Shown piece after piece: positions 3,585 through 28,001 of a stretch of DNA of 32,000 nt. This stretch comes from Candidatus Saccharimonadota bacterium (lineage in GTDB: Bacteria; Patescibacteriota; Gracilibacteria; BD1-5; UBA6164), in assembly GCA_965229705.1 (NCBI GenBank), contig OZ245922.1:690001-722000 (forward strand). The letters are read 5' to 3'. Position 1 is the first letter of the stretch. Every line of letters begins with the position of its first letter. The translations under genes were made by a program, and so were the position numbers. The notes below the pieces were generated by a model, which was not told where the DNA came from, did no database searches, and saw only the letters and a list, made by a program, of their open reading frames with translations.

Positions 3585-3587
3585 AGT

Positions 3588-3983: not shown

Positions 3984-3985
3984 AG

Positions 3986-4201
3986 TTACAAAAAATCTTT
4001 TTTAGATAATCAACTTTGTCGAATAATACTCATTGTTGTGCGAATATTGAGGGTCTTTTTTCCGTGATCTGGAACAGTGATTCGTATATCTCATTTTTTG
4101 AGCTGAACATGACTTCATTTTTGATGGGACACAAAAAATCACTTTTCAAGAAGTATCTCAATAATATCTTTTGAGCATATATTATGAATATTTGGAGACA
4201 T
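3986..4201 (-). CDS. hicA: HicA-family toxin (mRNA interferase)
   Basis: 71 aa: MSPNIHNICSKDIIEILLEK(G)FFVSHQK(G)SHVQLKK(G)DIRITVPDHGKKTLNIRTTMSIIRQS(G)LSKKDFL. This fits the HicA pattern (L.K.GF...RQ.GSH......TVP.H..K.L..GT...I.KQAGL). Confidence 0.85.
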
Positions 4202-4205
4202 CCTC

Positions 4206-4427
4206 TTATACACTTACATAAGTATTCATAGCATTTTTGAGAGATTCATATATTTGGTACTCTTCATCATGTTTTTCAAGGCCTTCTATATGACAAGCAA
4301 GGGCCTCCTGTCAATTAGTTATTGCTTCTTCAAGACTATCTCCCTGTGTTACAATATTAAAAATATTTGAGAGAACGGTATATGTTCCGTCTTCATTTTT
4401 AATAATTGTTAGTGGTATTTGTGACAT
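4206..4427 (-). CDS. hicB: HicB-family antitoxin (UPF0150 domain only)
   Basis: 73 aa: MSQIPLTIIKNEDGTYTVLSNIFNIVTQGDSLEEAITN(G)QEALACHIEGLEKHDEEYQIYESLKNAMNTYVSV. This fits the HicB N-domain pattern (EDG.Y.......G..TQG.SLEEA..N..EAL..H.E). The stop lies 4 nt upstream of the hicA start. Confidence 0.85.
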
Positions 4428-4551
4428 AAATATGGAAATACGAAAATATTTTATTTACTATATATATATTTTTAAAAAAGCATTTTCTGTTTTTTATTTT
4501 TCCCCTGCTGGACTCACCTCTTTTATAAGGGGGAGTTAGAGCGGGTACAAA

Positions 4552-5955
4552 CTACCCAATAGACCCCTCCATCTCCATTGATATAAGAACATTCATCTCG
4601 CTGGCATACTCCAGTGGAAGTTCTTTGACAATAGGAGAAATAAATCCGTTCACGATCATCGCCGCTGCCTCTTCTTCTCCGATACCACGAGACTGCAAAT
4701 AAAAGAGATCATCTTCATTGATTTTTCCTGCGCTTGCCTCATGGGCAACGATAGAATCAGTATTTGCACAACGAATATCTGGAATCGTATCTGATCATGA
4801 AATATCATCAAGCAGTAAGGCATCACACTCAATATGTGTGACACTTCCCGTTGCTCATGGCTTAATATCTATGAGCCCCCTATAAGTTGAGAGTCATCAT
4901 CCTTTGGAGATAGATTTTGATACCACACTACTAGAAGTATTTTTTCCGATATGGATAATCTTGGCTCCTGTATCCTGATTTTGCCCAGTATTTGCAAAAG
5001 CAACACCAAGGTGATCTGCTCGAGAATTATCTCCTTTCAACACACTACAAGGATAGAGCATTGTCGTATTTGAACCCATATTTCCTCATACCCATTCCAT
5101 ATATCCTCACTCTTCCACAATAGCTCTTTTAGTATTAAGATTATATGTATCAAGAGACCAGTTTTCTACCGAGCTATATCTCATGGTAGCATTTTTTCCT
5201 ACAAATATTTCTACTCATCCAGCGTGTAGTGAGTTTTCATCATACTTTGGAGCACTACACCCCTCTATATAATGAGCTTCTGCATCATCTTCTATGATAA
5301 TCATAGTATGCTCAAATTGTCCTCATTTTTTCACATTCATTCGAAAATATGACTGCAGTGGTTCTGAGACCTTGACTCACTTTGGAACATAGAGAAATGT
5401 CCCCCCTGACCATACAGCATAATGAAGAGCACTAAACTTGTGATCATTGAGAGGAATAGATTTTGCAAAATATTTTTTGATAATTGCCTCGTAGTGAGGG
5501 TTTTTGAGAGCGTGAGACAGATCATCAAAGACTACTCCCTCTTTCGCTATTTCTTCTTTGAGGCTATGATACACTGTCTCGCTATCATACTGCGCTCCGA
5601 CACCTGCAAGGGCTTTTTTCTCTGCTTCCGGAATACCGAGCTTATCAAAAGTACTTTTTATATTTTCTGGAACATCATCCCAAGACTTGTTATTTCCTGC
5701 GCCTTCTGGACGACGAAAATAATAAATAGATTGCAAATCTAGCTTTGAAAGATTTGGTCACCATGCTGGCATTGCGCGATCGTTATAGAGTTTGAGAGCC
5801 TCTAATCTCAGCTTGAGCATCCACTCAGGTTCTTCATTTTCTCGACTGATCTGCCGTACAACATCTTCATTTATTCCCTGAATTGCATCTCATTTATAGG
5901 TAACATTGTCTGAGAAATCCCAGGTATTTTGGACAGTTACTGTTTGTGTACTCAT
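4552..5955 (-). CDS. sufB: Fe-S cluster assembly protein SufB
   Basis: 467 aa with TGA as Gly. Peptides: [39 protein letters not shown]-equivalent region [46 protein letters not shown]. Track fragments 5377-5736 and 4897-5079 are in frame. Confidence 0.95.
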
Positions 5956-6006
5956 ATATTTTTATAATGTTAAATTAGTATTCTGTTACTTGTATCACAG
6001 AGAGAA

Positions 6007-6759
6007 CTATACGTCACGAAAACCATTCTCTTGTATGTGCTGCGCCAAGTCTTTTCATCACTGTTTCACTATTTGACCATCTTTGAGAACAAATACTGTA
6101 TCTACATCAATATATTCTAGTATTGTAAAATAATGCGTAATAATGATAATCGAGTTATGCTCATTACTCAGAGACTGGAGCATACTTGCAACCGTCTTAA
6201 ACGCATCAAGGTCAAGACCACTATCTATTTCATCAAGAATAATATACTTTGGTCCTATAAGCTTCATTTGCAGTATCTCTATTTTTCTTTTTTCCCCTCC
6301 ACTAAAACCAACATTGAGATCTCTTTCCAGAAATGCTTCGTCTATGTGCAACTCCTGCAAAAAAGGTTTTACATATCGCTTGAACATAAAAGGAGATATA
6401 TCTTGAAAATTCTCTTCTTCCCCTTTGAGTTCTGATTTCTTAGAAATATTTAAAATAGTTCTGAGATACTCTCAGAGTTTCACTCATTTGATTTCTGGGA
6501 TATTTTGAAAAGAGAGAAAAATTCCTGCTGCTGATCTCTCATCTGGCCCCATCTCTGTGAGATATTCATCTTCAATATACACTTCTCATCCTGTTATCTC
6601 ATAGTGTGGATGACCCATAAGTACACTCGAAAGTGTTGATTTTCCGCTCCCGTTCTTCCCCAGTAAACAGTAATTTTTTCATGTCTCAAACTGGAGAGAG
6701 ACTCCTTTCAAGATTTCAACATCTCCTGCCGATACCTTGAGATTTTTTATATCTATCAT
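6007..6759 (-). CDS. sufC: Fe-S cluster assembly ATPase SufC
   Basis: 250 aa: Walker [16 protein letters not shown] signature FSGGEKRK, Walker [14 protein letters not shown]-loop ITHY. Track fragment 6058-6387 is in frame. Confidence 0.95.
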
Positions 6760-9466: not shown

Positions 9467-10486
9467 TTATTTTATCCATCCCCGACAAATATCTATGAGT
9501 ACCCTCGCAAGCTTCTTTGGATCATGGCGAACATAGTCACTCTCGTTGATAAAATCCCTTTCAATAATCTTAAATCTTCGAGACGAAAACTCCATAGACT
9601 CCTTGAGTTTTACCGGTTTTTTTCATTCCTGCTTATACTTATCTACGAGACTCTGAGAAATATCGGCATTATTTACCAGTACATAATCAAGAATATTTCC
9701 TGCATACTTTTCGATATTTTCAATAAAGTCTGGGAGCTCATAGGTAGTCGTCTCTCCTTTATCTGCCATGATGTTACAAACATATATGATTTTTGCATCT
9801 GTCTGCATAAGAGCCTCACGCATTCACTCAGAAAGCAGATTGGGAATAATAGAAGTATAAAAATCCCCCGGTCACAGGATAATGATATCTGAGTGCAAGA
9901 TCGCCTCTCGCGCTCGTGGATTGAGACTTCACTCTCCACCTACCAAGAACGCTTCTTGAATATTTTGGTCTGGATTATGAGATTTGGTTTCGGGGTTTTT
10001 TTCGGAAACATCAATATTTCTCTCTCCTATCACTCGCGTTCCATCCTCCATCTCAACTCATAGATGTACATCTTCAAGCGTTACAGGTATGACCTTTCAC
10101 TGCACCTGAAACATATCACAAGCAGCATCCAAACCTGCCTGAAAACTTCCCTTTATATCTCATAGCGCTGTAAGAAGGGTATTTCCTATCTTATTTGCTC
10201 CTATACAACCATCTTCATCATGAAACTTGTATTCAAATAACTGTCGAACAAGCCCTGTATCTTTTGCAAGTGCTGCAACTGCTCTACGAATATCTCCAGG
10301 AGGAAGGACTCCATACTTGTCTCGTATGTCTCCCGTTGTTCCTCCTGAGTCTGTCATGGCAATAATCGCTGCAAGATTTTTTTTCTCCTGTATGCTATCG
10401 TCATGAAACTTCTTGAGTCCATAGAGCACATTATATGTTCCTGAACCTCCTCAAATAACGGTGATATTAAAGGTATTATCCGGCAT
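9467..10486 (-). CDS. YvcK/CofD-like protein (UPF0052 gluconeogenesis-factor family)
   Basis: 339 aa: ITVI(G)GGSGTYNVLYGLK, IIAMTDSGGTTGDIRDKYGVLPPGDIRR, IGNTLLTAL, IIIL(G)PGDFYTSIIPNLL, IIYVCNIMADKGET. Track fragments 10160-10429 and 9623-9823 are in frame. Confidence 0.85.
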
Positions 10487-10651
10487 GAAAAATATAAAAA
10501 ATAATTCCAAAGATTGTATGGTTTTTCACAGAAATACCAGCCATATTTACTATAATTTTTCTCTCTATGTGAAAAACTTTGCTCTTTTACAAAAAATATA
10601 TTACTCTATAGATAGAAAAACTCCCTAATATATATTACTTACAGATACACT

Positions 10652-11149
10652 ATGACTTCAAACGTTTCTGAGGGAAACATACTCCCATTTGAAGCAAGAG
10701 CCAATACTCAGCCTCAAAGTGAAAATCCCATAATGCAGTACTCTAGCATGGTGCGGGATATACTTGAAGAAAAGGGGGATATCCTCTGAAAAGAGGACAT
10801 GTTTCAGCTTGCAATGAATATTAAAAACTCTCATTTTCATCTCCCTATTGAAGATATACGAAAACTCTTTTGGGAAATTCTCCTGTTTTGACTCTCTGAT
10901 ATCCATGAAAATATACATCTCCGTAGTGAACAAGTATGCGATCCCATAGAGGCTGCGTGTTATTTGGATAATGCCTTTGCCTACTTAGAAGATTGAGGGC
11001 AACAGCAAACCACAGAGTACAAAATACTCCTATTATGGAGAGAGTTATTTCATACACTCGTTGGAAGACCACAAGCTCCATCATTTGAAAACGACGCAAG
11101 GTTTATAGAACAGCTCTATTCACAGAAAAATTCTTGAAAAAGTCTTTAA
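10652..11149 (+). CDS. Hypothetical protein (165 aa)
   Basis: ATG-initiated frame with four in-frame TGA and no TAA/TAG until 11147. I recognise no motif. Confidence 0.55.
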
Positions 11150-11167: not shown

Positions 11168-13060
11168 CTATAGAAGCACTGCCTTAATACGCCTCACACC
11201 CCTACTTGATGCCTCTTCTTTTTGTATCTGAAACTTCCCCATACCTACGCTCGTCTCGACATGTGGGCCTCCGCATAACTCTACTGAAAAAACCTCTTGT
11301 TCACTCTGCATGGTATAAACCTTGACTATATCAGGGTATTTTTCCCAAAAACTCCCAACAACCCCAGCATCCATTGCTGCCTGTTTTGGCATCTCTTCAA
11401 CTCATACACGCATACCCGATTGTATCGCATGATTTACAAATGCTTCTACTCTATCTAACTGTTCACGACTCACTTTTTCTTCATGTGAAAAATCAAAACG
11501 CAAACGCTCTGCCGTAATATTTGATCCTTTTTGAAATACATGATTTCCCAAAACCTTTCTCAGACCTGCAAGCAATAAGTGTGTTGCTGTATGTAACTGC
11601 GTTGTTTCCTCTGAAGTATCTGCAAGACCTCACTGAAACTTTTGCTCTGCTCCTGCTCGAGACTTTGCTCTGTGTTCCTCAAAGGCTTTATCAAAGCCTT
11701 CTCTATCCAAAGTAAGACCATGTTCCTCAGCAAGATCTTCGGTAATTTCTATAGGAAATCCATAAGTATCATAGAGTGTAAATGCGAGCTTTCACGGTAT
11801 TTGTCTTTTTCAATCTTCTCTCATTACAAGGGTAAGGAGTTTTTCAAACTCTTTCAGGCCTTTTTCGAGTGTTGTAAGAAACTGTTTTTCTTCCGACGCG
11901 ATATCTGCAAGGATTTGTTCTCGCTTTTCTCAAAGTTCATGATAGTGATGCTGATACTCATCTATGACTCCCTTTGCCACTTCTTGAGAAAGCCCTGACT
12001 GTATCCCCAAACCTCGAGCGTATCTAATAGCTCGTCTGAGCATTCTTCGGGTAAAGTATCACTGATCTTTATTTGATGGTGTTGCTCCATCTGCAATCAA
12101 AAATACCACCACTCGCAAATGATCCATGATCACGCGAAACGCCTTTGTTTCTGACTCGTTTTCTCCATATATTTTTCCTGAAAATCTCTCTATTGCTCAT
12201 CGAGCTGTATCAAATATATCTCCTAAAAATACATCTGGCTGGTCTTGCAAAGCAACCGCAATACGCTCAAGCCCTCCTCAAAAATCTATATTTTTATTTT
12301 CGAGTTCTTCAAAACCCTTTTCTGTTCGTATATAACTCATAAAGACATTGTTTCCTATCTCAAGAAATCTCCCACAATCACAGGCTGGATGACATGGCAT
12401 ATCGCACCACTGAGATTGTTCATGAAATCCGTGATGTTCTCCAAAATCCCAAAACATCTCACTATCTGTTCCTCCAGGTTCTCAAACCGGCATCTTTTCT
12501 GGAGTTCCTGATCGACTCCACCAGTTTTCAGTCTCATCATATAAAAATATTTTTCCTCCATTTACTCCTTCTTGTTCCGGATTTTCGATCACTTTTGCTT
12601 CTATTCCAGCACTTGCAAATTTTTCTTTCCAGTAATCAATCGCTTCTTCATCACGAGGAATACCGAGCTGCGTATTCCCCTTAAATACGGTCACACAAAA
12701 CTGCTCTGGGTTGAGTCAAAATTCATGGATATAGAGACCCCATGCCCAATCTATTTGTTCTCTTTTAAAATAGTCTCATAGTGACCAGTTTCCGAGCATT
12801 TCAAAAAATGTTGTATGACTATTATCACCTACCTCCTCTATATCAGAAGCTCGAAAGCACTTCTGACTATCAACGATACGCGTTCCGAGAGGATGTTTTT
12901 CTCCGAGGAGATATGGGACCATAGGCTGCATTCCTGATCCGGTAAAAAGTGTCGTAGGATCATTTTCTGGTAAAAGAGATGCAGAGGGAATGATATGGTG
13001 TCCTCTTTTTTGAAAAAATTCGAGGTATTTTGCTCTAAGTTCGTGAGTGGAGTATTGCAT
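11168..13060 (-). CDS. alaS: Alanine--tRNA ligase, short form ending after the editing domain
   Basis: 630 aa: [55 protein letters not shown](G)[13 protein letters not shown], editing-domain HTATHLL and CGGPHV, ending ...RRIKAVLL. Track fragments 12776-13126, 12482-12694 and 11168-11392 are in frame. Confidence 0.9.
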
Positions 13061-13252
13061 ATAAAAAAACGGAAAATAAAGGGAAATAAGATGAAAAATA
13101 TTATATATATATATTCTCTCTTTCAAGCCAATTTTTGTTTTAGTAAATAGTAAAAATCACTATTAAGTTAATGTCTAGTTGCATTCTTAGAAAAAGTCTG
13201 AGAAATATGGTATTTTTATAGGGATTATTTCTCTTATAGAACTATACTTTAT

Positions 13253-16200
13253 ATGTCAGAAAATACTGATATTTACGACCAACTCGATCAGATAGACTGA
13301 CAAGAGTGAGAAGATGAAACTCGTGCTCTACTAAAAGAGGCTGAGGTTATTGCTTCGCGCTTTCAAAATGTAGATGCCGTAATGCAAAAATATCAGGATC
13401 TTCGGCAAACAACTATAGATGCTCTTGCTGATCTTCGTATTGATACAGCCAATGAGTTAGCAAATATGAGAAAAGAGTTTCAGGATATGAAAAATGTCGC
13501 TGGAGTATGAGTAAATGAAGATGGGAATAGTATTCCTGATATGCCCAGTTATTTTCAAGAAAATACACGAAATTGAAATTTATTACAAAATACTCCTTTT
13601 ATCGAGTTTTCAGATGAAGAAAAAGAATTTGCACTTTCATGGATTACAGAAAACTACTCAGATTTTCGTGGTTCTGGAAGCTGGTGACAAAACGATCGGC
13701 TTTCTCGAGTACACAATAAAGAAGAAGCAAGAATATCTCAAGAAAATCTTATAAATCTTTTATACAATAGCAGTGCTATTTCTCACTGATTTTACAATAC
13801 CTGATCAGAAGTATTATTTTTTACCTTGACGGATAATCATTGATGGGTGCAAGAAAATATACATAGTATAGAAAATGAAATAGAAAATGGGAGTATTTCA
13901 TCTGAAAAGCTCCAAAAGTATATTCACTATCTTGAACTTTCAAAAATTTCTACAGATTTTGAAATAGCTGAAATACTGATAGAAAAAAATATACACCTAG
14001 CTGATACTCTAAGTACTTGAAAGGTTCGTTGAGTGTATCGTGCACTACTTACTATAAAAGATCCTGAGATTCGAAGTCTTGCGACTACGAGTGTTGAGAA
14101 ACTCTCTCCCGAATCTGCAAAAAAGGTTCTTCATTTTTTACAAAACGATAGTCGAACATGAGATTATAGTGAAGATATTTGACTCAGTTGAATAGGAGCA
14201 ATGATTGAAGTGCATAACGATAATCAAAGAGACACTTTTCAAAAAGAGCTGATAAAAAGAGCTTTTTGAGAAGCTCTTATAGATAACTGATATGATGCGG
14301 GGAAATTGCTCGCATATTCTCGTGAGAAAGGATATAGTGTTCTCACAGAAGCACAATTTAATAATAGTCTCCGAAAAAGAGATAGCTATGCTCTTGTGAA
14401 CTATGTTGCATCACTCTCACAGAGATATAATGGAGATCTCTCTCAAGTACGACAAATATTGCGAACAGACTCTTTATGATTTATGTCTCCAAACGAAATT
14501 GAGGAGCTTCTCAAAGAATCAACAAGAAAAAACTCAATGCATGCAGATACAATGAATAGTCTCATAGGACTGTTTGAGTCACCTGAGGGACTAGAAGATA
14601 TTTTTTGGAAGCCTATAGATGATCTCTCGTCAGAACAAGCTCGTAAAGCCTTAGAATATACCAATGAATTTTTCTGAGAGAAAAATACACCTGCAAACTG
14701 GTTTTGACTTGCAGACTGGGATGCGTGAAGTATCTCGGAGATTTATACCCTTGATGATCGAAATGAATCTCAAAAAAAGCTCATAGATAAGATTTATGGT
14801 GACGGAACTTTTGAGACATGATATACTCAAGATGGGAGTATTATTTGATATTCTGACGAAGAATGAGGAAATCATCTATCAACCACAGAAGAATTTGAAG
14901 CAAAACTTCAAGGAGGAAAAGAGTTTAATGCTCTTATAGCTGCAAACTATATTAGGTATTTATCATCTCAATATGAATGAGACACTTTATCTTACAAAAT
15001 CTTAGAAACCTTTGTACCAAGAGCAAAATCTCAAGAGAAAAAATTCGAAGAATACATAAATGATGATTTACTTACCTTTTTAAAAGCAAGTAAAAATGAA
15101 GATGTAAAGTCTGCTCTCGAAATACTCAGAAAAGAACGTATACTTATACACGAGTGATGAGTTGAAGTTTGGCTAAAAGATAATCAATGGGAAACTCTCA
15201 AAGATGAATACTATCAAGCCAAAGAAGACCTTGAATCACTATGTAATAGTGATATAGGTGGAAATAATAAACTAGTAGACTTAAATGATGCCGTAGTACG
15301 TACTCATGAAAGTCAGTGTAGTATTCAAAAAGAGCGTCCTGCATTTTGAAACGAGATAGATACAGAACTCATAGATAATTGTCTACAATCTTGTGACTTC
15401 TCTAAATGAGTAGATAGTAGAGCAGATGTGGATATATCAGATTTTGATACTCAAGTTTTGAGCCTTGAGACACAAGCAAGAATACAAAGCTTTTGATGAA
15501 AAATATCAGAAAAAACCAACGCATTCACCACACAAATCCTTGCATGACCATATGGGCAAGTACCATGAATCCAAACGCTTCTCAGAGAGTATAATATTAA
15601 TGGTAGCGAAGATCTTTCTCATCCTTCGGCAAACGGTATACAGTGAGCCTATAACTCTGATGAGTTTCAAAACGCATTCAATACTCTGATACAAAGCTAT
15701 AACCAAGATACAAGTAATAAGCCTCTTCCAGAACTCTCTGGAGCTACACTAGATATTATCATGGCACAAATCGACGAAGTAGGAGACGAAGATTTTACCA
15801 CAGAGTTTGCGAGCAAACTCACATGAGTCGAAAGCTTATGAGGACTATTAGATGGAGCTGCAACAGAAATTCAAAATTGATGAAGAGAGATAGATGCAGA
15901 GTACAAAAAACTCAATACCGACTGACATACTACTAGCAGTATTATGGAAATACTATGAGCTCTTTCTACCCTTGCACCAAATAGTAATGGATTTCATGCA
16001 GCAAGAGAAGTGATTCTTTCACTACCAGAAAATCAAGGAACTTCTACGAATTTTGCAAATAATTCCTTCTATACATGAATTCCAGCTTCTAATAGCTTAG
16101 GTGGTCATATAGACAACATTACCGTTGCCGCAAAGTATCAAGAGTTTGGAGAAGAGTTAGAAATAAATATTAATGAACAAGCCTGTAAAGAAAATATTAC

Positions 16201-18652
16201 AAAAATATTTACTGGTATTCCCGAGTGAATCATAGATGTTGACGAAGTGTTTACAGGACTTCTTACAAAAATCTCAGAGTGATCCAATCCTCTACTCGTT
16301 GAAAATCTTGATCAGTTGAAGACATTTTTAGAAACATGAGATATAGACTCGCTTGATGATTCTGCTCTTGCTGAACTGATACGAGAGGTATACGCTGAGG
16401 CTCTATCTCTTACAGAGTCAATAATCGTAAGCAAAATGAAGCGACAAGAGGAACTCTTAGCAGAGTGATGAGATCCTGATGAATTTAGCCAAATAACATC
16501 TGAGCTTGCAAGCCTCTTTGTAATTAGAAAAGAACTGCAGTTAAGCAGTTTTGTTGTATCAGGGAACTTCACGCTCGAAGGAAATAATACTTGAGTAACG
16601 GCGCAAGATATTCTCCGTAGTTTTTTAGATTGAGAAATAAGTGAAGAAGCATATAAGCAAACACTTATAGAATTGTATAGTAATAATGAGGCTATAAGGG
16701 AAGAAAATGAAAGATTAGAATGAGAGTTAGATGAAAAACTTGATTATATAGCAAAACTGTCACGTGATTTTATTTCGCAAATTAGTGAGTGACTTACTCT
16801 AGATGAAATACAACAAAAAAAAGAATTATTTAGATTTTCTAACTACTATGTCCTCAGAGCAGAACAAAACCTAGAAGACAATAATGAAATTGGAAATAAA
16901 ATAGTTGGTATAAATGAAGCTTTACATAAGGAACTTACGGAAAAATGGAATAACATCATTGAAAGTATACGTACAGATATAAAAACTTCAGCTAATTCTA
17001 CAACATCTATGAATCTTGCAAATGAAGATTTCTGAAACGAGAGTATTCAAAACGATAATGAAATACAAAGTATGCTAGATCTGGCAAAAGAAACTGAATG
17101 GAGAAACAAACTTGAACATAATATAGGGAATATAGAGGTTTTAGATGACTCAAGAGTTGCTATTTTTGAAGCTCTCCAAGGCTTTGGTCTCACAGAAGAA
17201 GAAACCCATGAGATATTTTGACAGGTATTATCTAAAATCAAAAAAGATCCAAATCTTGTAAATAATACCCAGCACCTTGCTCAGCTCCTCGAATGAAAAG
17301 AGTTTGCATGAGATGAGCTTAGTGCGACCATCCATGCTATATACACGCATACTGCTCAGCAAAATGCTGAGAAACTCAAAATTGCTACAAAAGAATTCTC
17401 TCATCTTCAAGACAAAATAGATAGATGAGAGTATCTCACGCCTGATGAATTGGCAGATATAAGAGCTCTTGCACATCTTATATGAGAGTATATAGACTTT
17501 AATAATAAGCTTGAGATTGAAAATCATATTTTCACTACTGGTGGAGAGACTCTCATAGAAAAATTCCTAAATGGAGAAATCACTCTTGAAGAAATGCATG
17601 ATCAAGTAAGGAAAAAAAGACAAGAAAGTATTGCAGTATTAAGGTGAGGGCAAGTAGCAAGAACATGACATATTATAGCAATTGTAGATCAAACCGTTCT
17701 TGATGCTAGTTGAGATACTTCTATGATACCAGATATGGAATTCCCTTATCCTCTTACATCTGAAGAAGAATATCTCCTCGAGTCATGAGCATATCATGCA
17801 CGTTATGAGAATGCGAGTCTCGTAGAAGAGATAGCAACAGATATATCTCACTCTTCAAGCACTCAGTGAGCGGTAGCAACAGTCACATTAGTAGAAACTA
17901 CCGGAGAAGAAAACTTTTCTTCTGAAACTCTCGAATTTATTGAAGAACAAAAAGAAGTCATCATCGCATATTCTCAAAGTGATAAGTGACAAAAAGATAT
18001 TATGTTTCAGGCAAGTCTCAAACATATGAAAGAGAGTCTTTGAGAAGAAAACAGTTTCGTGCAATCACTTGAAAAGATAGAGTCTTGAGAGGTAAGGGTT
18101 ATCCCCCCACTCACAGCTCAAAATATCTCCTCTCCAAACATGAAAACTACCTATAGAGAAATATCTCAAGAACTCACCCTCTCTCCCGAAGAACAAGAAA
18201 CACTCACAGAGCAAGAACTCACCCTCATCGCCTCCAACGAAAACGCAAAAGAACGCTTTGTAGAGTTTCGTACCACCCTCAAAGAGCTCTGACTCACAGA
18301 ACTCTGGAGATACAGAAATGAGATTTTTCGCTCCATTGCAGGCATGAGTTTTAGCATCACAGACGGAGACTACATCAGTGAAAATGAACTCAATATCTTC
18401 CTGTCAAAAAGCGTCTACGCAACAACACAAGATTCACGACTCAAAACAACTCCTGGAAACATCACAAGCACAAAACAAATCATCAGAGAAGTGAATCGAC
18501 AAACTGGAGGTTTTGGGGATATAAACGCTGTCAATGTTATCGGAGAACCGCTCACTCTCGTAGAATACCACTTTCGAGAAAAATTTGCGCCTCGAAACGC
18601 ATGAATGATTAGCTATTATACGCAGGCATTTCGAGATGCACTAAAATCATAG
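13253..18652 (+). CDS. Giant hypothetical protein, 1,799 aa, no recognisable domain
   Basis: A single frame runs from ATG 13253 to TAG 18650-18652. The first 2.2 kb was walked codon by codon with coordinates, and the rest as continuous triplets that re-enter track ORF 18344-18604 in phase. About 64 in-frame TGA and no TAA/TAG in a low-GC context. Track fragments 14483-14677 and 18344-18604 lie in this frame. Confidence 0.85.
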
Positions 18653-18671
18653 TAAAGGAAATGCAGAAAAA

Positions 18672-21212
18672 CTACTCTTCTTCTTCACTCTCACGAATCA
18701 CGCTGGCACGAACAATCTCATCTCCTGCATCTTTGAGCTTAGTGAGTATCACTCATTGTGTCACTCGTGATGTGAGTCTCACTCCCTTGAGACTTAAGCG
18801 TATTGTTTGTCACGCCTTAGATATGAGGAGGACATCACTATTTTTCTTATCTTCTTCTGTGAGTATTTTTGCCGATACAAGTTTTCCTGTTTTTGCGGTC
18901 ACTGCCATAGCTTTGACTCCTGCTCATCATCGTTTTTGATTACGGTATTCCTCTATATCTGTGATCTTTCACAGACCATTTTGTGTTGAGATAAATACAA
19001 ACTTATTTTCTTCTCCCACGACTGCTACCTCGATCACATAGTCATGATTTTTTAGTCCAATACCCTTGACTCATGCAGCAGCTCTTCACATCGGTCGAAC
19101 ATCTTCTTCGTGAAACTGGATAGCTTTTCCTTCACGCGTTGCAATAAAAATACTATCATTTCCTGTTGTAGTTTTGACCCACTTGAGTTCATCTCCCTCT
19201 TTTACTCCAACTACCTTGAGACCATTGGCTCTGATATTTCTCACAAGATCCATATTGAGTTTTTTTACTACTCCCATTTCTGAAACAAAGAAGAGGTATG
19301 TATTTTTTTCACGAGTGATATCAAGGATTGCTGATATTTCCTCTCCTTTTTGCAGATTGAGCAGATTCACAATTGCCTGTCATTTTGCAATGCGCGAAGT
19401 CTCTGGTATCTCGTAGGCTGGGAGAGAAAATACGCGTCACTGACTGGTAAAAAATAGCAGGTCAGCATGGTTGGTTGTTGGGACAACGAGATAGATTTCA
19501 TCATCTTCTTTTGTGGCTGTAGTAATTCATTTTCCTCATCTTCTTTGTGTACGAAAAGCACTTGACTTGAGACGCTTTACATAGTTATTTTTTGTTAAAA
19601 CAACAACAACATCTTCGTTTGGTATAGTATCCTTTGCATTAAACTCTCATACTTTTCCTAGTTGTACTTGCGTTCTTCTCTCATCACCATATGACTCTTT
19701 GATCACATCAAGTTCTCCGTCAATAATTGCCACAATCCTCTCTGGTTTTGCCAAAATATCTTGAAGATCTGCTATGAGTTCCAGCTTTGCTTTGAGTTCG
19801 TCTTCCACTTTTTGCCTTTCAAGACCTGCAAGTTTTTGAAGTCTCATCTCAAGTATTGCATCTGCTTGGAGATCAGAAAGATCAAAATTTGCTATCAGAT
19901 TTTCTTTTGCTTCCTCCTTTGTTTCACTGGCTCGAATCGTTTTGATAATAGCATCAATATGATCAAGAGCTTTTTTGAGTCCTTCGAGTATATGTGCTCG
20001 CGCCTGCGCAATCTTGAGTTCGTACTGGGTGCGACGCGTGACTACCTCTTTTCTGTGCTGGAGAAACTCCAATAACATTTCTTTGAGGTTATAGAGTCGC
20101 GGTTGCATTCATCTATCTCCGAGAGCAATCATGTTGTAGCCAAAACTTGTTTGCAGTGATGTGAGCTTGTAGAGCTGGTTCAAAATCTTTTTTGGAAAAC
20201 TATCTTTTTTGAGTTCCACGATAACTCTTACTCCGTCTTTATTTGATTCATCACGGATATCTGAGATTCCTACTATTTTTTTATCTCGTACGAGCTCTGC
20301 CATTTTTTCCACAAATGTGGACTTGTTCATTCCAAAAGGTACTTCAGATATATGAATATATTTTCTTCCTTTCGTATTTTCTTCAATATTTGCAACTCAA
20401 CGAATAGTGACAGATCCTCTTCCTGTAGAATATGCCGTAAGAAGCGCTTGCTTATCATACACTATTCCTCCTGTTGGAAAATCTGGTCCCTTGATATACT
20501 CCATCAGATCTTCTATACTGACTTCATCAACACTTGGATGAAGCAGGAGGTATTTGAGCGCTCATACAAGTTCTGTGAGATTGTGAGGAGGAATATTTGT
20601 TGCCATACCAACTGCAATACCCATCACTCCACTCATCAAGAGGTTTGGAATCCTATTTGGAAGGACGGTTGGCTCTACTTCATTGGCATCATAATTTGGT
20701 CGAAAATCAACGGTTTCTTTCTCAATATCTGAGAGCATATTTTCGGCAATCTTGGTCATCTTTGCTTCTGTATACCTCATCGAAGCAGCTCCGTCTCCAT
20801 CCATAGATCCAAAGTTTCCCTGCCCATGAACGAGTGGATAACGCAAAGAAAAATCTTGCGCCATACGAACCATTGCCTCATATACCGAAGTATCTCCGTG
20901 TGGATGATATTTTCCGAGTACGTCACCGACAACTTTTGCGGATTTTCGAAACTTTGCGCTACTTCTTAGACCATTTTCATGCATCGCGTAGAGGATACGC
21001 CTATGAACAGGCTTGAGTCCATCTCTCACGTCAGGTAAAGCTCGCGAAACAATAACGCTCATCGCATAGTCAATATAACATTCCTGCATCTCATCTCCGA
21101 TATTTCTCGCCGTATCTCCTTCATATACAATATCTGCTTCTCGTGGTTCTGGCTGGTGTGAGTCTTGATGTTCTTCTGTATCCTTAATATCCATATTTTC
21201 GTTTTCTGACAT
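18672..21212 (-). CDS. gyrA: DNA gyrase subunit A
   Basis: 846 aa: [61 protein letters not shown] (catalytic Tyr), [18 protein letters not shown], and C-terminal beta-pinwheel repeats. Track fragments 20562-21212, 20109-20330, 19647-20108 and 19086-19370 are in frame. Confidence 0.95.
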
Positions 21213-21358
21213 GATTATTAGTAATTCTTAAAGTAAAAAATATACATGCAAAATATATGAATATATTGGCTTTTTACAAGGAAAAAAGAGCCTTTTTTTG
21301 GTATTTTTTTATTCTTGTCTACAATACAAAAAATACCTCTTGAAAAATACTCTTACAT

Positions 21359-22624
21359 ATGAAAGCTATTATCCTCGCTGCAGGAAAAGGAACCCGACTC
21401 CAACCACTCACTCTTGATGTCCCAAAAGCAATGGTAGAAGTTTATGGAAAACCTCTATTAGAACATAATATAAATAAACTCTTCCCCTTTGTAGATGAGT
21501 TTATTATTGTGGTAAAGTACAAAAAAGAAGTGATTATCGAGTATTTTTGAGACGAGTATCAGTGAAAAAAAATACACTATCACGAACAAGGAGAAAAGCA
21601 AGGTACAGCGTGAGCACTTGAGTGAATACATATATCATGAGACTGCTTTATTATATCATCAGATAGTATATATCATCAGCAAGATATCAATATGATAGCT
21701 ACATATGATGGTTATGCGGCTCTATGCCAAGAGGTAGAGAACCCTGAAAAGTGGGGAATATTTCAAATATCTCCGCATGATCATACTATCGAAAAAGTTA
21801 TCGAAAAACCTCACACATATGTCTGAAATCTCGCACATCTTTCCTATCTCAAGTGCCATAGTGAAATGATAACCTTGTGCGACTGAATAGAAGTATCCTC
21901 AAGATGAGAATATGAACTCACTGATGTTATCAACATTTTTATCAAAAAATTTCCACTCAAGGCTCTGAAGTTGCAGCAGAGTTTTATTGATATTACTGCT
22001 ATGCAAGATCTTGAGAAAGCAAATACCATTGAAAAACCTCCTCTATGACACACTCGCTACATAGAAAATATCGGAAGTTATGAAGTACATGTTTGAATTC
22101 CCCAAAATGGCATTCAAGAAATCCTAAGCTACTCACAAGATACTCGTGATATAGCGCTCCAAAAATGAACCAGTGATGGGAAAAAACGCTTCACCAGTCA
22201 TAAAAATATCTCAAAATGGTACCATGACACTGACAGATACCCTTTCACACTTCTTTCAGAAGACGGAACTGTCGCTGGTCTTTGGTGGGGGAGACCAGCA
22301 AAAATGCCCATCATTCATGAAGTTCTCAACAATCATCTCTACAAAATGATAAAAGATCATTCTGATAATATCCATACGAGCGCTATTCGTATCTACCCTT
22401 TTGCTCGAGGAAAAAAACTCGCAAGCCCCTTTATAGAAGTTTGCGAGAGATGCTACAAGCAAATATTTACAGATATATATATGTGTGATGATATCAGTGA
22501 GACAAATATTCCCTCACAAAAAGCCGTTGAGCGCCTTGGCTATCAAAAAGTCTGATACGGGAAAAATATCAATAATTCTCTCTCTTGAGATGAGAGAAGG
22601 TTTGTATATACAAAAAAGTGGTAA
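21359..22624 (+). CDS. Nucleotidyltransferase (sugar-1-phosphate NTP-transferase fold) fused to a GNAT-like acetyltransferase domain
   Basis: 421 aa; the frame was checked codon by codon. N-terminus [28 protein letters not shown] (G.G.R...K signature). The C-terminal third, [24 protein letters not shown]...[16 protein letters not shown], resembles the GNAT acetyl-CoA-binding core. Confidence 0.8.
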
Positions 22625-22631: not shown

Positions 22632-22707
22632 TGGAGCCACTAACGAGGCTTGAACTCGTGACCTCTCCCTTACCATGGGAACGCTCTACCAACTGAGCTA
22701 TAGTGGC
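22632..22707 (-). tRNA. tRNA-Thr (anticodon GGU) with encoded CCA
   Basis: GCCACTA-TA-GCTC-AGTTGGTA-GAGC-G-TTCCC-ATGGTAA-GGGAG-AGGTC-ACGAG-TTCAAGC-CTCGT-TAGTGGC-T-CCA. It folds by hand into a canonical 76-nt cloverleaf with GGT at positions 34-36. Confidence 0.9.
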
Positions 22708-23046: not shown

Positions 23047-23484
<438 letters not shown>

Positions 23485-23638
23485 AATACTCCAGTAATAA
23501 ATAAAATACTTTTTGATTTCAAGAAATTTTTCAGCTACTGCCTAGCTTACTCTTAAATCAAAAGCCATAGTGTGATACTATGAAACTCAAGAAATATATT
23601 TGCCATTGATATATATTTCTCAATGCCTCACAGTATTT

Positions 23639-24061
23639 TTAAGACTTTGGTTTTTTTGCTCCATAGAGTGATCTCCCCTGTTTTCTGTCTTTTACTCCTT
23701 CGCAGTCCAAAACTCATCTCACAACATGATACTTCACCCCTGGAAGATCCTTTACTCTTCCTCATCGAATCGCGACAACTGAATGCTCTTGGAGATTATG
23801 TCCTTCTCATCCAATATAAGCATTTACCTCATATCCATTTGTCAGTCTTACTTTTGCTACTTTACGCAAGGCTGAGTTTGGTTTTTTTGGCGTCATAGTT
23901 GTCACCTTAGTACATACTCCTCGTTTCATCGAACACCCTTTTGGAAGTTCTGTTATTTTTCCTCTCTTGAGGGAGTTTTTGAGTACCTGAAGAGCAGGAG
24001 ATTTAGATTTTTTTATTTTATCTTTTCTCGGTTTTTTTACGAGTTGACTAATAGTAGGCAT
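23639..24061 (-). CDS. rpsL: 30S ribosomal protein S12
   Basis: 140 aa: [12 protein letters not shown]...[25 protein letters not shown](G)[14 protein letters not shown](G)[15 protein letters not shown](G)[15 protein letters not shown]. All three TGA fall on positions that are Gly in E. coli S12. Confidence 0.97.
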
Positions 24062-24098
24062 TTTAAAAGTATAAGGAAAATATTTGTAATATATAAGA

Positions 24099-24488
24099 TT
24101 AACGCTTTGACCATGATGGCGACTTTCTCGCTTTTTTGAGACCTGGTTTCTTTCTCTCTACCTTTCGAGCATCACGAGTGAGCATTCCTGCAGCTTTAAG
24201 GAGAGTTCTATGACTACCTTCTTTTTCTGCAAGAGCCCGAGCCAATCCATGAGCGATAGCTCCGGCTTGAGCACTTTCACCAGATCCTTGAACATCTACC
24301 GTAAAATACACATCTCTATCAACTTTACACAGCTTGAGTGGAGCGAGAGCAATTTCAAATAGATCTTTTCTATGAATGTACTCTCTCATAGATTTTCCAT
24401 TGATAACATTTTCTCATTTTCCATCATACAAGCGTACTTGAGCAGATGCTGTTTTTTTTCTTCCTACCTTATAGGTGTATTGAGACAT
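24099..24488 (-). CDS. rpsI: 30S ribosomal protein S9
   Basis: 129 aa: [24 protein letters not shown](G)[12 protein letters not shown]...[19 protein letters not shown]...[27 protein letters not shown]. Confidence 0.95.
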
Positions 24489-24498
24489 AGATAATAAA

Positions 24499-24930
24499 TT
24501 ATAAAGTTAAGGTTTCTGGTTTTTGAGCCGTATAATTATGCTCATTTCCAACACATAATTTGAGTCTTTTTTGCATATCTTTTCGTAGCTTGTTTTTTGG
24601 AAGCATCCCACTTACTGCTAACTCCAAAGCCTTAGTTGGTTTTTTTGATAACATTTTCTCCAGTGGTGTCGAAACAAGACCTCCAAGATATCCTGTATGT
24701 CTATGGTACATTTTATCTCTCATTTTGTTTCCCGAAACTGCAAATTTATCAGCATTGAGAACAATCACATAATCTCCATTATCCATATGTGGAGAAAAAT
24801 CGACTCTATCCTTTCCTCGTATCTTACGAGCAATAAGGGTTGCAAGACGACCAAGCGTATGGCCTTGCGCGTCAATGACATACCATTTTCTCTCTTGAGA
24901 TGGAAGTTGTTTTGGTGTAATAGTTTTCAT
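24499..24930 (-). CDS. rplM: 50S ribosomal protein L13
   Basis: 143 aa from the internal ATG (MKTITPKQLPSQERKWYVIDAQGHTLGRLAT...). The track start at 24960 would overlap the rplQ stop by 8 nt and would add 10 residues (MYNTFKRDKI) ahead of the canonical MKT... start. Confidence 0.9.
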   Translation of the reverse strand: MKTITPKQLPSQERKWYVIDAQGHTLGRLATLIARKIRGKDRVDFSPHMDNGDYVIVLNADKFAVSGNKMRDKMYHRHTGYLGGLVSTPLEKMLSKKPTKALELAVSGMLPKNKLRKDMQKRLKLCVGNEHNYTAQKPETLTL

Positions 24931-24952
24931 AATTTTATCTCTCTTAAAGGTA

Positions 24953-25315
24953 TTATACAAGCTCTAAAGCAACAAGTTTTGCATTATCTCCGTCTCGATA
25001 CTTTATCGGAGTTATGCGAGTAAAACCAGAAGTTTTTTTGTCTTTATATTTTGGAGCAACATTTTGAAATAGCTCCTTACTTGATTCCTCAGTAAATAGA
25101 TACTGCATCACATATCGTATAGCATTCATTTCATCTTTGGTGTTTACCGCATTAATCATCTTATCTACCATCGGAATAAGAGATTTTGCTTTTTTTTCTG
25201 TTGTTTTTATCCCTTTATGGAGAAACAATGAGGTCAAAAGATTTCTTTGCATCGCTTTTCGATGCTGAAAACTTTTTCCGTTAAACTTTAGATGTTTTCT
25301 GACTTTATGTCTCAT
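24953..25315 (-). CDS. rplQ: 50S ribosomal protein L17
   Basis: 120 aa intact in the track: MRHKVRKHLKFNGKSFQHRKAMQRNLLTSLFLHKGIKTTEKKAK...GFTRITPIKYRDGDNAKLVALELV. Confidence 0.95.
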   Translation of the reverse strand: MRHKVRKHLKFNGKSFQHRKAMQRNLLTSLFLHKGIKTTEKKAKSLIPMVDKMINAVNTKDEMNAIRYVMQYLFTEESSKELFQNVAPKYKDKKTSGFTRITPIKYRDGDNAKLVALELV

Positions 25316-25347
25316 GGTTCAATATAAAAATAGTAATAAAGATTCTT

Positions 25348-26328
25348 TTAGTCGTCTCCAAGGAGCTTGAGTCATCTTTCACTGAGAGAAGATCGTATCT
25401 CTGTCATAGCCTTTTTTCCAAATCATTTTATAGAAGAAAGTTTTGTTTCTGTACACTTTGTGAGTTGCTCTATAGAAAGAATATTTCCATTAATTAATGC
25501 GTTGAGAGTTCTTGGAGAAAGCCCCATAATCTCAATCGGAGTATAACTCTCTTTTTCCAGTTCTTCTTTTACTTCTTCTTTTTCTTTATTGAGAAGGTCT
25601 TTTATGTCTCCTATAAATTCTCATTCTACCTGCAATGCTTCTTCATTAAGAAGAGAGAAGTACGATTGGAGCATATTTCCCGAAAACTTGAAAACATCTA
25701 CTGGAGAAAGAGCCCCATTTGTTGTAATCGTCATCTCTATTGCATCAAGGTTTGTGAGGTCACCAACACGAGTTGGAGAAACATCATATTTTACATTGAG
25801 TACTGGTGAAAAGTTCGCATCCATAAGGAGTACTTGTACGTCTTCTTCTTTTTCTTTGAGTTCTTCTACAGAAATATATCATGCATTTTTTTCTAATCGG
25901 ATTTCAATATCAAGTTCTAGCTTATCCTGATCTATTTCCGTGATATACATATCAGGGTTGAGGATAGTGATATCTGATGGAAGCGTGATATCAGCAGCTG
26001 TAACTGTTCCTTTTTTATTTTTCTTCAGAGATACCCATTGTGGTCCTAATTCTTTTTTGTCTAAAATCAGTCCTTTGAGGTTGAGCATAATATCTAAAAC
26101 CGTATCTTTCACACCAGGAAGTGAGTCATATTCGTGGCTCACTCATTTTACTCGAACTCCTGTAACACAAGTACCAGGTACTGATGAAAGAGCAACTCTT
26201 CGTATAGCATTTGCTAGGGTTACCCCATATCCTCTTGGAAGGGGTGAGAGTGTAAATATAGACGAATTTTTACCGGCACTATTTTGAGTAATTTTTGGAA
26301 CTCAGATGACATTGTGGAGAATATGCAT
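25348..26328 (-). CDS. rpoA: DNA-directed RNA polymerase subunit alpha
   Basis: 326 aa: [49 protein letters not shown], and alpha-[23 protein letters not shown]...IK(G)FGKKAMTEI. Confidence 0.95.
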
Positions 26329-26384
26329 AATGTTGTATTTTTGGGAGATAAACTAAGAAAGTCTGAGAGAAAATAACAAAATGA

Positions 26385-27008
26385 TTATTTTGAGTAAAAC
26401 TCAACTATTTTTTGTATATCAATTATCTGTTCAAAGTCTTCCTTCTCAGGAAGTTCATTAACGGTAATTTTCAAGTTCTTAATATCTACATCTATCCACT
26501 TGGCGCTAGATATCTTTCCTTTTGCATCTTTTGCAAATTCTTCTAGTTCTTCCAAAAGAGATTTGTATAGTGGTGATTCTTTGAGTTTTGTTCGAAGTTC
26601 TATGATGTCTCATTTTTTGAGAGAAATAGAAGGAATCGTTACCTTCACTCCATTGAGAGTAAAATGAGCATGGCTCACAAACTGGCGAGCTTGCATTCGT
26701 GTTCTTGCAAATCCTGATCTATACACGACATTATCAAGCCGAAGCTCTAAGAGTTGTAACATCTTTTCTCATGTTGTACCCGCACTATGAGATTTTTGAG
26801 CCTTTTTAAAGTATGAAAGAAACTGTTTTTCTGAGAGTCAGAACATTCTTTTTGCTCATTGTTTTTTTCGAAGTTGTACTCCAAACTCTGATGATTTTCG
26901 ACTTCTGAGCACTCATCGTTTTCCAGTATCAATATCATATTTCTCTGTTCCAAAGAGGTTTATCCCCTCTCTTCGACAAAGTTTTTTCTTTGGTCCGGTA
27001 TATCTCAT
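26385..27008 (-). CDS. rpsD: 30S ribosomal protein S4
   Basis: 207 aa: [20 protein letters not shown]..., [41 protein letters not shown] (S4 RNA-binding domain). Track ORF 26747-26953 is out of frame with it. Confidence 0.95.
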
Positions 27009-27063
27009 GATATATATTGCGTTATAAAGTAATTGATTGTGTTGTGTTTATCCTCCAAGATTT

Positions 27064-27441
27064 TTACATCCTTCGAGCCTTTTTCTTTCTGCAGCCATTA
27101 TGTGGAACAGGAGTTACATCATAAATAGCTCTCAGATCAACGCCTGCTGATATGAGTCATCGAATTGCTTGTTCTCTTCCTACCCCAATACCTTTTATGT
27201 ATACATCTACTACCTCTAGACCATGAAGCGTCTTTGCCTTTTCTACCGCTTGCTCCGAAGTCATTTGTGCAGCATAAGGAGTTGACTCTCTTGCTCCCTT
27301 AAAACCAGCAGATCATCCACTCGACCATGTAAGGACATTTCCTTGTTCGTCAGTAATACTCACAATAGTATTATTAAACCCTGCCATGATATGCGCCTGA
27401 CCTATCTGAACAACTTTTCTTGTTTTTTTACTTTTCGCCAT
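27064..27441 (-). CDS. rpsK: 30S ribosomal protein S11
   Basis: 125 aa: [28 protein letters not shown](G)[17 protein letters not shown]...[13 protein letters not shown](G)[23 protein letters not shown]. Confidence 0.95.
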
Positions 27442-27465
27442 AAATATATCAAAAACTATAAAATA

Positions 27466-27834
27466 TTATTTTTTCTTTCCTGCAATTGCGACACTCTTTC
27501 CTTTTCGAGTACGAGCATTTGTTTTTGTATTTTGTCATCTTACTGGAAGTCTTTTTTGGTGTCTGATTCCTCTATAACATCGTATTTCTCTGAGTCTCTT
27601 TATATTTCCTGAAAGGAGTCTTCTCAGATCCCCTTCTACAATGTATTTTTTTACCTCATCACGAATCAGATCGAGCTCTGCCTCACTACAATCATCAATC
27701 TTTTTTGTTCTCGCAATCTTAACGGTATCAAGAATTTTTTGAGCTGTTGTTCTCCCTACTCCATATATATAGGTAAGTGCAATTTCTGCATGTTTTCCAC
27801 TTGGAAGAATAATACCAGCAATTCGAACTGCCAT
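27466..27834 (-). CDS. rpsM: 30S ribosomal protein S13
   Basis: 122 aa: MAVRIAGIILPSGKHAEIALTYIYGVGRTTAQKIL...IRCYRGIRHQKRLPVR(G)QNTKTNARTRKGK. Confidence 0.95.
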
Positions 27835-27875
27835 AGTTATGTATGGTAAAATAATTAAATTATCAATAAAAATAT

Positions 27876-28001
27876 CTATCCTTGTCTTTGCTTACACTTA
27901 GGATTTTCACATATAACTCGAACACATTTCTTTCCCTTAAATGGTCTACTCACAATTTGGCATTTTTGACATATTTTTTTTACTCCTGTTCGTACTTTCA
28001 T
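27876..28001 (-). CDS. rpmJ: 50S ribosomal protein L36
   Basis: 41 aa: [41 protein letters not shown] (zinc-ribbon C..C...C....C pattern). Confidence 0.95.

Follow-up and report, generated by a model that had tools for sequence, protein, structure and literature searches.

Protein X, a large acidic protein encoded between alaS and gyrA, and its family in a narrow clade of Gracilibacteria

The stretch of DNA analysed here, hereafter the window, comprises 32,000 nucleotides (nt) of a Gracilibacteria genome (lineage BD1-5; UBA6164; contig OZ245922.1 of assembly GCA_965229705.1, positions 690,001 to 722,000) and carries, between alaS and gyrA, a 5.4-kb gene whose product we call protein X. Its coding sequence occupies 13253..18652 on the forward strand, from an ATG at 13253 to a TAG stop at 18650-18652, and holds 1,799 sense codons under genetic code 25. 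X is a genuine protein-coding gene that can be read only with UGA as glycine. As far as sequence comparison reaches, it belongs to a family that is previously undescribed and confined to one narrow Gracilibacteria clade, whose gyrA is at least 79% identical to that of the window. The function of the family is a more tentative matter: we lean, with somewhat less than even confidence, towards X as a soluble, intracellular protein that serves as a scaffold or in interactions rather than as an enzyme, its ends conserved for docking and its body changing rapidly. Candidate phyla radiation (CPR) bacteria, such as Gracilibacteria, are abundant, mostly uncultured and dependent on other cells, and a large share of what they encode lacks annotation; little is understood of the means by which they attach to hosts and exploit them. 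Giant lineage-specific proteins of unassigned role are common in CPR genomes, and X is a solid lead rather than a surprise.

Reading frame, genetic code and family membership

The X frame contains 64 in-frame TGA codons, no TAA and a single TAG, the terminal one. An earlier note on this DNA, made from the letters alone, had described a frame from ATG 13253 to TAG 18650 with about 64 TGA, and our analysis reproduces it to the codon. The remaining five frames across the same 5.4 kb hold 26-93 TAA/TAG apiece, and the probability that a frame of this length is open by chance is ~1e-28 at the mean stop rate and 1e-11 at the lowest rate. Under the standard code the longest start-to-stop open reading frame (ORF) is 86 amino acids (aa), exactly the upper limit that the note had given for the fragments, and the longest stop-to-stop run in the X frame is 103 codons. 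GC content at the three codon positions is ~0.49 / 0.34 / 0.23 and steady in nearly every 600-nt slice, the exception being the last ~600 nt, where the third-position value (GC3) is 0.40. Because this pattern is uniform along nearly the whole ORF, X looks coding throughout.

TGA accounts for 64 of the 116 glycine codons of X (55%), and the earlier count of 27 TGA against 19 GGN in the first 736 codons proved exact. Across the genes of the window, the TGA share of glycine codons tracks conservation: it is 0-14% in rplM, rpsI, rpsM and rpsK, 18-36% in alaS, gyrA, the suf genes, rpoA, infB, rpsL, rpsG and rpsD, and 42-62% in X, recR, an NTP-transferase-like gene and two small hypothetical ORFs. 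Translated with code 25, gyrA aligns over its whole length with gyrase A chains of solved structure (E ~1e-219); in the best-matching of these, glycine stands opposite at least 10 of the 15 TGA codons of gyrA. As judged from this alignment, the assignment of UGA to glycine is supported by gyrA independently of X.

Relatives of X proved hard to reach by sequence search. A word-index search of 5.8 billion proteins with full-length X returned only X itself (P0001), profile searches of the protein index with the C-terminal domain and the head returned only the fragments P0002 and P0005, and an exhaustive HMMER search with X aa 1-1200 against 1.8 billion representative proteins returned only P0003 and P0004. 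Back-translated patterns of X or its C-terminal domain, scanned against GTDB genomes, JGI metagenomes and IMG/VR, had no match. Anchoring on gyrA was the only route to orthologues that worked, and it yielded seven loci (L001-L007) from Gracilibacteria metagenome-assembled genomes (MAGs). Each carries, just downstream of gyrA and on the opposite strand, a large code-25 ORF with an ATG start; these ORFs span 1,223-1,678 aa with 42-64 in-frame TGA and no internal TAA/TAG, and a divergent alaS lies beyond X wherever the contig extends far enough. An eighth locus, L017, is a contig from a Botany Bay metagenome on which P0004 (292 aa) is encoded in the order rsmH...CofD-alaS-X-gyrA. The alaS-X-gyrA order is thus kept in 8 of 8 related loci (L001-L007 and L017; 12-64 TGA), and the X slot is occupied at one site in 9 of 9 clade genomes. 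The description of X as an orphan in the earlier note therefore stands beyond the narrow clade but not inside it, where the syntenic relatives form a family.

The arrangement within the slot varies. L006 holds tandem paralogues of 963 aa and 674 aa, and L018, an independent assembly of the same organism, shows the same pair; P0003 (941 aa; locus L016) adjoins alaS, and a second paralogue begins after it. In-frame TAA/TAG occur in L017 only, where six of them divide X between a protein of 292 aa with head and module and one of 1,250 aa with body and tail, both still long open frames. Family members range from 674 to 1,799 aa. In distant Gracilibacteria and Peribacteria loci (gyrA 50-60% identical), no X-type gene stands beside gyrA. 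The earlier proposal of a fixed chromosomal gene rather than island cargo is borne out by the identical position in 9 of 9 genomes and by the absence of phage relatives. Neither tblastn against 50,697 phage records nor the IMG/VR scan found a relative, and carriage of X by a phage or mobile element was rejected on these grounds and on the constant position. We delimit the alaS-gyrA locus family by its head, a C-terminal domain with a W.YR.EI ... E.EL..F core, the alaS-gyrA position and an upstream motif, AATATGKTATTTT; X carries all four. Against the family hidden Markov models (HMMs) it scores E = 1e-38 for the head and E = 4e-74 for the tail, values obtained with X itself among the HMM-building sequences.

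The earlier note had predicted that table-11 pipelines would miss the gene, and they do. In L018 (ENA ERZ6863655) the X locus is called as fragments of 72-201 aa, and CofD, alaS, X and gyrA appear as pieces of 36-326 aa in its standard-code gene calls. The sole database copy of X, P0001, is a table 4 translation with Trp at all 64 UGA-Gly sites. Public annotation of the X clade is unreliable, and table-11 and table-4 entries of this kind degrade homology search and structure prediction. The handles gained here are the family profiles (head, module and tail) together with the upstream motif; the alaS-X-gyrA address and this 13-mer can find further copies by synteny where sequence search fails.

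Domain architecture and composition

An N-terminal head, a module of ~175 aa and the C-terminal ~190 aa are common to the family, and nothing else is. The head (aa 1-~100; 13253..13552, +), seen in an alignment of 9-11 members, begins with an acidic leader, goes on with amphipathic stretches and has the consensus ..IK.ET.K.L.EA..I...KEY.DVR..TI..L...T...L...R.EL.; X opens with the strongly acidic MSENTDIYDQLDQIDGQEGEDE, and its head is 18-28% identical to those of its orthologues. The module occurs three times in tandem in X and once in L003, L004, L006a, P0003 and P0004. Repeat 1 (aa ~96-270; 13538..14062, +) is the most diverged, matching the module HMM over aa 158-228 with an independent E-value (iE) of 5e-5 and repeat 3 by blastp with E = 1.4e-5. 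Repeat 2 (aa ~263-445; 14039..14587, +) matches the HMM over aa 325-400 (iE = 6e-10) and repeat 3 with E = 6.5e-12 at 27% identity. Repeat 3 itself (aa ~439-625; 14567..15127, +) is the best conserved, being 42% identical to L003 over 137 aa around the core LIDKIYGDGTFETGYTQDGSIIGYSDEEGGNH...FEAKL...ANYIRYL, and it is the only region matched when X aa 1-1200 were searched against the 1.8 billion representatives (P0003, E = 1e-8; P0004, E = 1e-6).

Beyond the modules lies a lineage-unique core of ~950 aa (aa ~660-1610; 15230..18082, +), which is open and codon-periodic. Its similarity to any orthologue or database protein is below detection; phmmer and jackhmmer comparisons of X with all members yield alignments for aa 1-~656 and 1611-1799 only. 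Relaxed self-comparison of X finds only the three N-terminal modules and no internal repeats in the core, and a coiled-coil match to Pfam CdvA (aa 1123-1168, E = 0.0016) is sub-threshold, with 18.9 bits against a cutoff of 30. The C-terminal domain (aa 1611-1799; 18083..18649, +) is 52% identical to that of L007 and 16-27% to those of other members, with the consensus ITPEE...I..NPEA..NFI.....L.ELNLE..W.YR.EI..A....IN..DDSL.E.EL..F. The helix-cap motifs that had been reported to recur do so in clear excess, [LM][ST]P[EDN]E occurring 3 times in X against 0.02 expected from shuffles. One of these three strict matches overlaps the ITPEE motif that opens the C-terminal domain, and part of the recurrence of L[ST]P[ED]E motifs is explained by the module repeat.

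The product is acidic, as the earlier note had claimed, with an isoelectric point (pI) of 4.5 and a net charge of -153; Pro makes up 1.9% of it, Cys 0.28% and hydrophobic residues 31%, and it has no low-complexity repeats. Per 100 aa its charge is -8.5, against -1 to -6 in the neighbouring enzymes, so that we rejected the idea that its acidity is a mere trait of the whole proteome. The net charge is negative in every member (-2 to -13 per 100 aa), Pro is at ~2-3% and, as in folded proteins, hydrophobic residues are at 29-34%. The maximum 19-residue Kyte-Doolittle score of X is 1.17, which agrees with the claimed absence of a hydrophobic helix; among the 12 members the maximum ranges from 0.58 to 1.43 and never falls at the N-terminus. 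By hydropathy and regular expressions (regex) only, 12 of 12 members lack a Sec or lipoprotein signal, a pilin-type leader, a transmembrane helix and a wall anchor.

Nor did X show Walker A, HExxH, DEAD or any other catalytic pattern, again as the note had it. Pattern scans of the whole family found Walker A (GxxxxGK[ST]) and HExxH in none of the members, no NTPase, nuclease, TIR, Sir2 or protease motif, and no GGxGxD RTX repeats, LPxTG or lipobox in any member; a single DE[AVIC][DH] match, in L002 only, was taken as chance. The Cys cluster lies within the range reported for it, 15240-15400, and its spacing differs from the C-x26-C-x21-C-x3-C that had been given: it reads C664-x24-C689-x20-C710-x3-C714 (15242..15394, +), and these residues fall in the non-conserved core. 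The cluster probably does not represent a metal site that defines the family, since the other members do not conserve it; Cys counts across the family run from 0 to 7 in total with no common pattern, and L006b has none. A different Cys-containing stretch (...CPLCKRIDEYDNLTDITIALQSPELQEAQPDFYA...), with a CP[FL]C motif, is common to L003 (aa ~640-700) and the second ORF of L017 (aa ~170-215) and absent from X; it could be a small metal- or redox-related element of one body type.

Searches of Pfam, NCBIfam, PHROGs, PADLOC and PDB gave no significant match to any characterised family, in line with the earlier failure to assign the gene. For X, all NCBIfam and PHROGs matches had E >= 0.03; for eight orthologue or paralogue proteins and P0003, Pfam and PADLOC gave nothing at E < 0.02. 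Against PDB sequences, full-length X had no phmmer match at E <= 10, the module profile had no match, the head profile met only amphipathic-helix noise (ApoA-I, E >= 0.026), and the best match of the C-terminal profile, to the EF-hand protein hippocalcin, was not significant (E = 0.13). An EF-hand in the C-terminal domain (IN..DDSL.E.EL..F) was rejected: the canonical loop D-x-[DNS]-x-[DNSG]-G-x-[ILV]-x-x-x-E occurs in none of the members by regex, and loop length and ligand positions do not fit by eye. The family is absent from every library searched and so, on this evidence, is new as a family.

Structure models were built from segments mistranslated with Trp for Gly and from alignments of 3-5 rows. 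AlphaFold2 modelled module copy 3 (5-row alignment) with pLDDT 66 and pTM 0.61 as helices plus one small beta-hairpin, and Foldseek with this model gave a best PDB E of 0.47 with TM <= 0.30 and no match in BFVD. The C-terminal domain was predicted to be helical at pLDDT 41, which is unusable. Both modelled segments are thus predicted to be predominantly helical, the module model alone being of usable confidence.

Divergence and possible function

The gyrA sequences of L001-L004 are 92-94% identical, yet X aligns among them only at its ends or at ~25% identity. We compared nonsynonymous (dN) and synonymous (dS) divergence between L003 and L004 by the Nei-Gojobori method under code 25, obtaining dN 0.07 and dS 1.34 for gyrA, 0.32 and 1.6 for the X tail, 0.91 and 1.4 for the body, and 0.94 and 1.4 for the front third. 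The nonsynonymous rate of X is 5-13 times that of gyrA. The ratio omega is roughly 0.05 for gyrA, 0.2 for the X tail and 0.65 for the X body, values to be read as relative rates only because dS is near saturation (1.3-2.6 for gyrA in the clade). These estimates point to weak but real constraint on X and, with omega below 1 throughout, give no proof of positive selection. X makes up 0.5% of a genome of ~1.0 Mb. Because it is kept intact across the clade while its sequence turns over, it presumably matters to the organism and is probably linked to something that itself changes.

The types of head and tail do not follow the gyrA tree. For instance, the tail of X has its nearest relative in L007, that of L001 in L006b, and that of L002 in L006a and P0003, an incongruence that fits old tandem paralogues differentially retained, recombination, or both. 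The flanks disagree with gyrA as well. The alaS genes of L003 and L017 are 87% identical to each other and only 57-63% to all others, while their gyrA genes are 90-92% identical to those of L001, L002 and L004. The CofD-like gene groups otherwise, into {L003, L017, L007} and {L005, L006}, and the NTP-transferase-like gene falls into two classes, one of L001, L002, L003 and L005 (58-73% identity) and one of the window, L004 and L006 (43-54%), with 31-40% between classes. Identity matrices, on which alone recombination was judged, suggest that such mosaic flanks reflect recombination or allele replacement around the X locus.

Several known systems resemble the X family in part. Flagellins, including the so-called giant flagellins, have conserved helical N- and C-termini and a hypervariable centre of very variable length; by this likeness, which is a lead only, the X family also has conserved ends and a length-variable middle (674-1,799 aa), lacks a Sec signal, is acidic with few Cys, and includes tandem paralogues. 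However, X and nine members have no match to Flagellin_N (PF00669) or Flagellin_C (PF00700) at E <= 0.1, the C-terminal model (pLDDT 41) consists of several short helices rather than one long coiled-coil arm, and no flagellar genes lie near X. The terminal (attachment) organelle of Mycoplasma is built on the cytoskeletal proteins HMW1, HMW2 and P200, which offer another analogy: like them, X is large, acidic, Cys-poor, non-enzymatic, lineage-restricted and devoid of a signal peptide, and it too belongs to a tiny-genome bacterium of a kind attaching to other cells. X differs in having no sequence or profile similarity to them, no EAGR-box or other Pfam match and no long proline-rich acidic region (Pro 1.9%), and an attachment organelle in the clade is only hypothetical.

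With LXG/type VII toxins X shares a conserved, helical N-terminal domain of ~100 aa, a variable remainder and the lack of a Sec signal, but its C-terminal domain is conserved rather than polymorphic, no immunity gene follows it (gyrA is directly next), and the family has no Pfam LXG or WXG100 match at E <= 0.1. RTX/type I giant proteins are likewise giant, very acidic and Cys-poor, with no N-terminal signal and a conserved C-terminal region; the X family lacks their GGxGxD nonapeptides and any Ig-like or other repeat body, and no ABC/MFP transporter genes adjoin it. Membership in the flagellin, LXG, RTX, P-loop NTPase (SMC/MukB-like, STAND or AAA+), helicase and zincin groups was rejected, their defining features being absent. 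At the level of the locus, the O-antigen rfb cluster of E. coli with gnd is a fixed-position hypervariable locus with hitch-hiking flanks, and in this analogy X has a constant address between housekeeping genes, contents that diverge far faster than the genome, and neighbours whose allele classes disagree with the species tree; X is a single protein gene, unlike that biosynthetic cluster. A hypervariable gene has been described before in a Gracilibacterium (BD1-5), where it was of unknown function and read as being under diversifying pressure (Sieber et al. 2019, PMC6851277). The variation there is within a population and affects a 9-mer nucleotide repeat that encodes PTD, a motif that the authors linked to a large extracellular PTD-repeat protein of co-occurring Colwellia (PMC6851277). 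X is also a hypervariable Gracilibacteria gene, but its variation lies between species and is spread along the whole body; it has no PTD repeats, and a link between the two was rejected.

The reading of X as an intracellular scaffold starts from the 12 members examined: since none has an export signal, an anchor or a catalytic motif, and the N-terminus is acidic, X is likely to be soluble, intracellular and non-enzymatic. Through its conserved head and tail X would dock onto conserved partners or onto itself, and the body, acidic, proline-poor and probably largely helical, would be constrained in size, charge and helicity rather than in residue identity. Under such bulk-only constraint, divergence, duplication and splitting of the body would be tolerated. 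The most attractive candidate for what X may organise is an attachment or host-contact structure of these episymbionts. Several points weigh against this proposal. The localisation is deduced only from the absence of known signals, and Sec signals are missing from the effectors of contact-dependent secretion systems too. The pattern of divergence (extreme at gyrA identities of 92-94%, with tree-incongruent C-termini, tandem duplication, fission and mosaic flanks) is typical of genes for interaction with other organisms. A strict single-chain ruler or tether is disfavoured because the split in L017 separates head from tail, and a TGA share of 55% of glycine codons, like that of other poorly conserved genes, is not suggestive of a very abundant structural protein. 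Models built with Trp for Gly on shallow alignments also leave room for homology at the level of the fold.

Much of the same evidence serves the main rival, which we regard as possible though less probable: that X acts in host interaction, as an effector or a surface protein that leaves the cell without a Sec signal, for example by a contact-dependent system, with the head or the C-terminal domain as export or anchoring signal and a variable body engaging variable hosts or prey in an arms race. Proteins that can hardly be aligned between species with 92-94% identical gyrA, N- and C-terminal types at odds with the gyrA tree, the paralogues of L006/L018 and L016 and the fission in L017 would all fit it, and the mismatched allele classes of alaS, the CofD-like and the NTP-transferase-like genes are as expected from hitch-hiking beside a diversifying locus. 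X is also Cys-poor and acidic like many exported giant proteins, and the lifestyle would suit: the Absconditabacteria in culture live as predators, and metaproteogenomics has led to the proposal that Gracilibacteria depend on hosts (PMC8080830, PMC11452946). Yet no member has a recognisable export signal, anchor, or adhesin or toxin domain, the N-terminus is strongly negative, and no partner secretion or immunity genes are adjacent. The gene sits at one fixed site in every genome and its presence is not variable; omega of 0.2-0.65 stays below 1, and most of the pattern calls for no positive selection, being explained by weak constraint with saturated divergence. The scaffold and host-interaction ideas could be reconciled if X were the cytoplasmic scaffold of an attachment structure, by analogy with the HMW and P200 proteins of Mycoplasma.

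A bolder proposal, which we think rather unlikely, is that the alaS-X-gyrA slot is a dedicated diversification locus of this marine Gracilibacteria clade and X a variable, partner-recognising component of attachment or feeding. X would then be a cytoplasmic scaffold or a cargo exported without Sec, its head and tail plugging into conserved machinery, and recombination would swap its body between lineages, dragging along alaS and other neighbours and setting which host can be exploited. If true, X would represent a new class of host-range determinant with relatives only within the clade. More doubtful still is an intracellular conflict protein, such as a sensor of phages or mobile elements whose body recognises invaders and whose ends signal or oligomerise. 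X is large, cytoplasmic-looking, fast-evolving and modular and has tandem paralogues, like many defence proteins, but no PADLOC family matches at E < 0.03, the motifs of NTPases, nucleases, TIR, Sir2 and proteases are missing, there are no phage or IMG/VR relatives, and the gene lies between housekeeping genes, with no effector partner, rather than in a defence island. Conservation effectively refutes the idea that the frame is non-functional, a decaying pseudogene or a chance opening in a recoded AT-rich genome. Although a body omega of ~0.65 and the in-frame stops that split the gene in L017 would suit decay, the chance of such an open frame is vanishingly small (~1e-28), long frames have stayed intact at this site in 9 genomes although synonymous divergence is saturated, conservation extends to the head, the module, the C-terminal domain and the upstream motif, the C-terminal domain has an omega of ~0.2, and the codon-position bias is uniform. 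An intracellular scaffold is the reading we continue to prefer, with the reserve stated at the outset.

The locus and its neighbours

The upstream motif of X is the 13-nt AATATGGTATTTT (13204..13216, +), which lies 37 nt upstream of the ATG and is the sole match in the 32-kb window. Its family pattern, AATATGKTATTTT, stands 35-50 nt 5' of X starts, once each in L001-L004, L007 and L017 and twice in L006 (one per tandem paralogue), with a one-base variant in L005, and nowhere else in the fetched loci. From its resemblance to an extended -10 element (TGnTATTTT) we take it as a putative promoter. Conservation of this non-coding element exceeds that of most of the X coding sequence.

On the left, X is separated by a 192-bp intergenic region from the divergent alaS (11168..13060, -), whose likely Met start is at 13060. 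This alaS is 54-75% identical to the alaS adjoining X in the related loci and is short, about 630 aa from the likely Met, where typical bacterial alaS has roughly 870 aa. The alaS of L017 (608 aa) has Pfam matches to the catalytic and second-additional domains only, and the alaS C-terminal domain seems to be missing in the clade. On the right stands the convergent gyrA (18672..21212, -), which matches solved gyrase A over its full length and is 79-85% identical to the gyrA of L001-L007. The spacer between X and gyrA (18653-18671) measures 19 bp, the length given in the earlier note. Because it is too small for a terminator, the convergent transcripts of X and gyrA probably overlap. A terminator-like hairpin with a T-run on the gyrA strand (18586..18601, -; a consensus match, 1 site against 0.1 expected from shuffles) sits in the last 70 nt of the X coding sequence, within the conserved FREKFAPRNA stretch.

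Further out, the CofD-like gene occupies 9467-10510, and between it and alaS lies an ORF (10652-11149, +) for an acidic 165-aa protein (pI 4.8) with 4 TGA. The NTP-transferase-like gene (21257-22624, +) stands on the far side of gyrA; it is fast-evolving, and TGA makes up 47% of its glycine codons. An Rfam scan of the window found only a tRNA-Thr (GGU) at 22632-22707. Other genes of the window were named from a code-25 ORF map and N-terminal sequences, alaS, gyrA, the CofD-like gene and the tRNA-Thr having been checked further; they comprise a suf cluster (sufS, sufB and sufC), rsmH, recR, a block of ribosomal-protein genes with rpoA, and infB. The rest of the window (812-6759, -; 23047-31077, -) has the look of ordinary core genome, and its genes can be read only if UGA is a sense codon.

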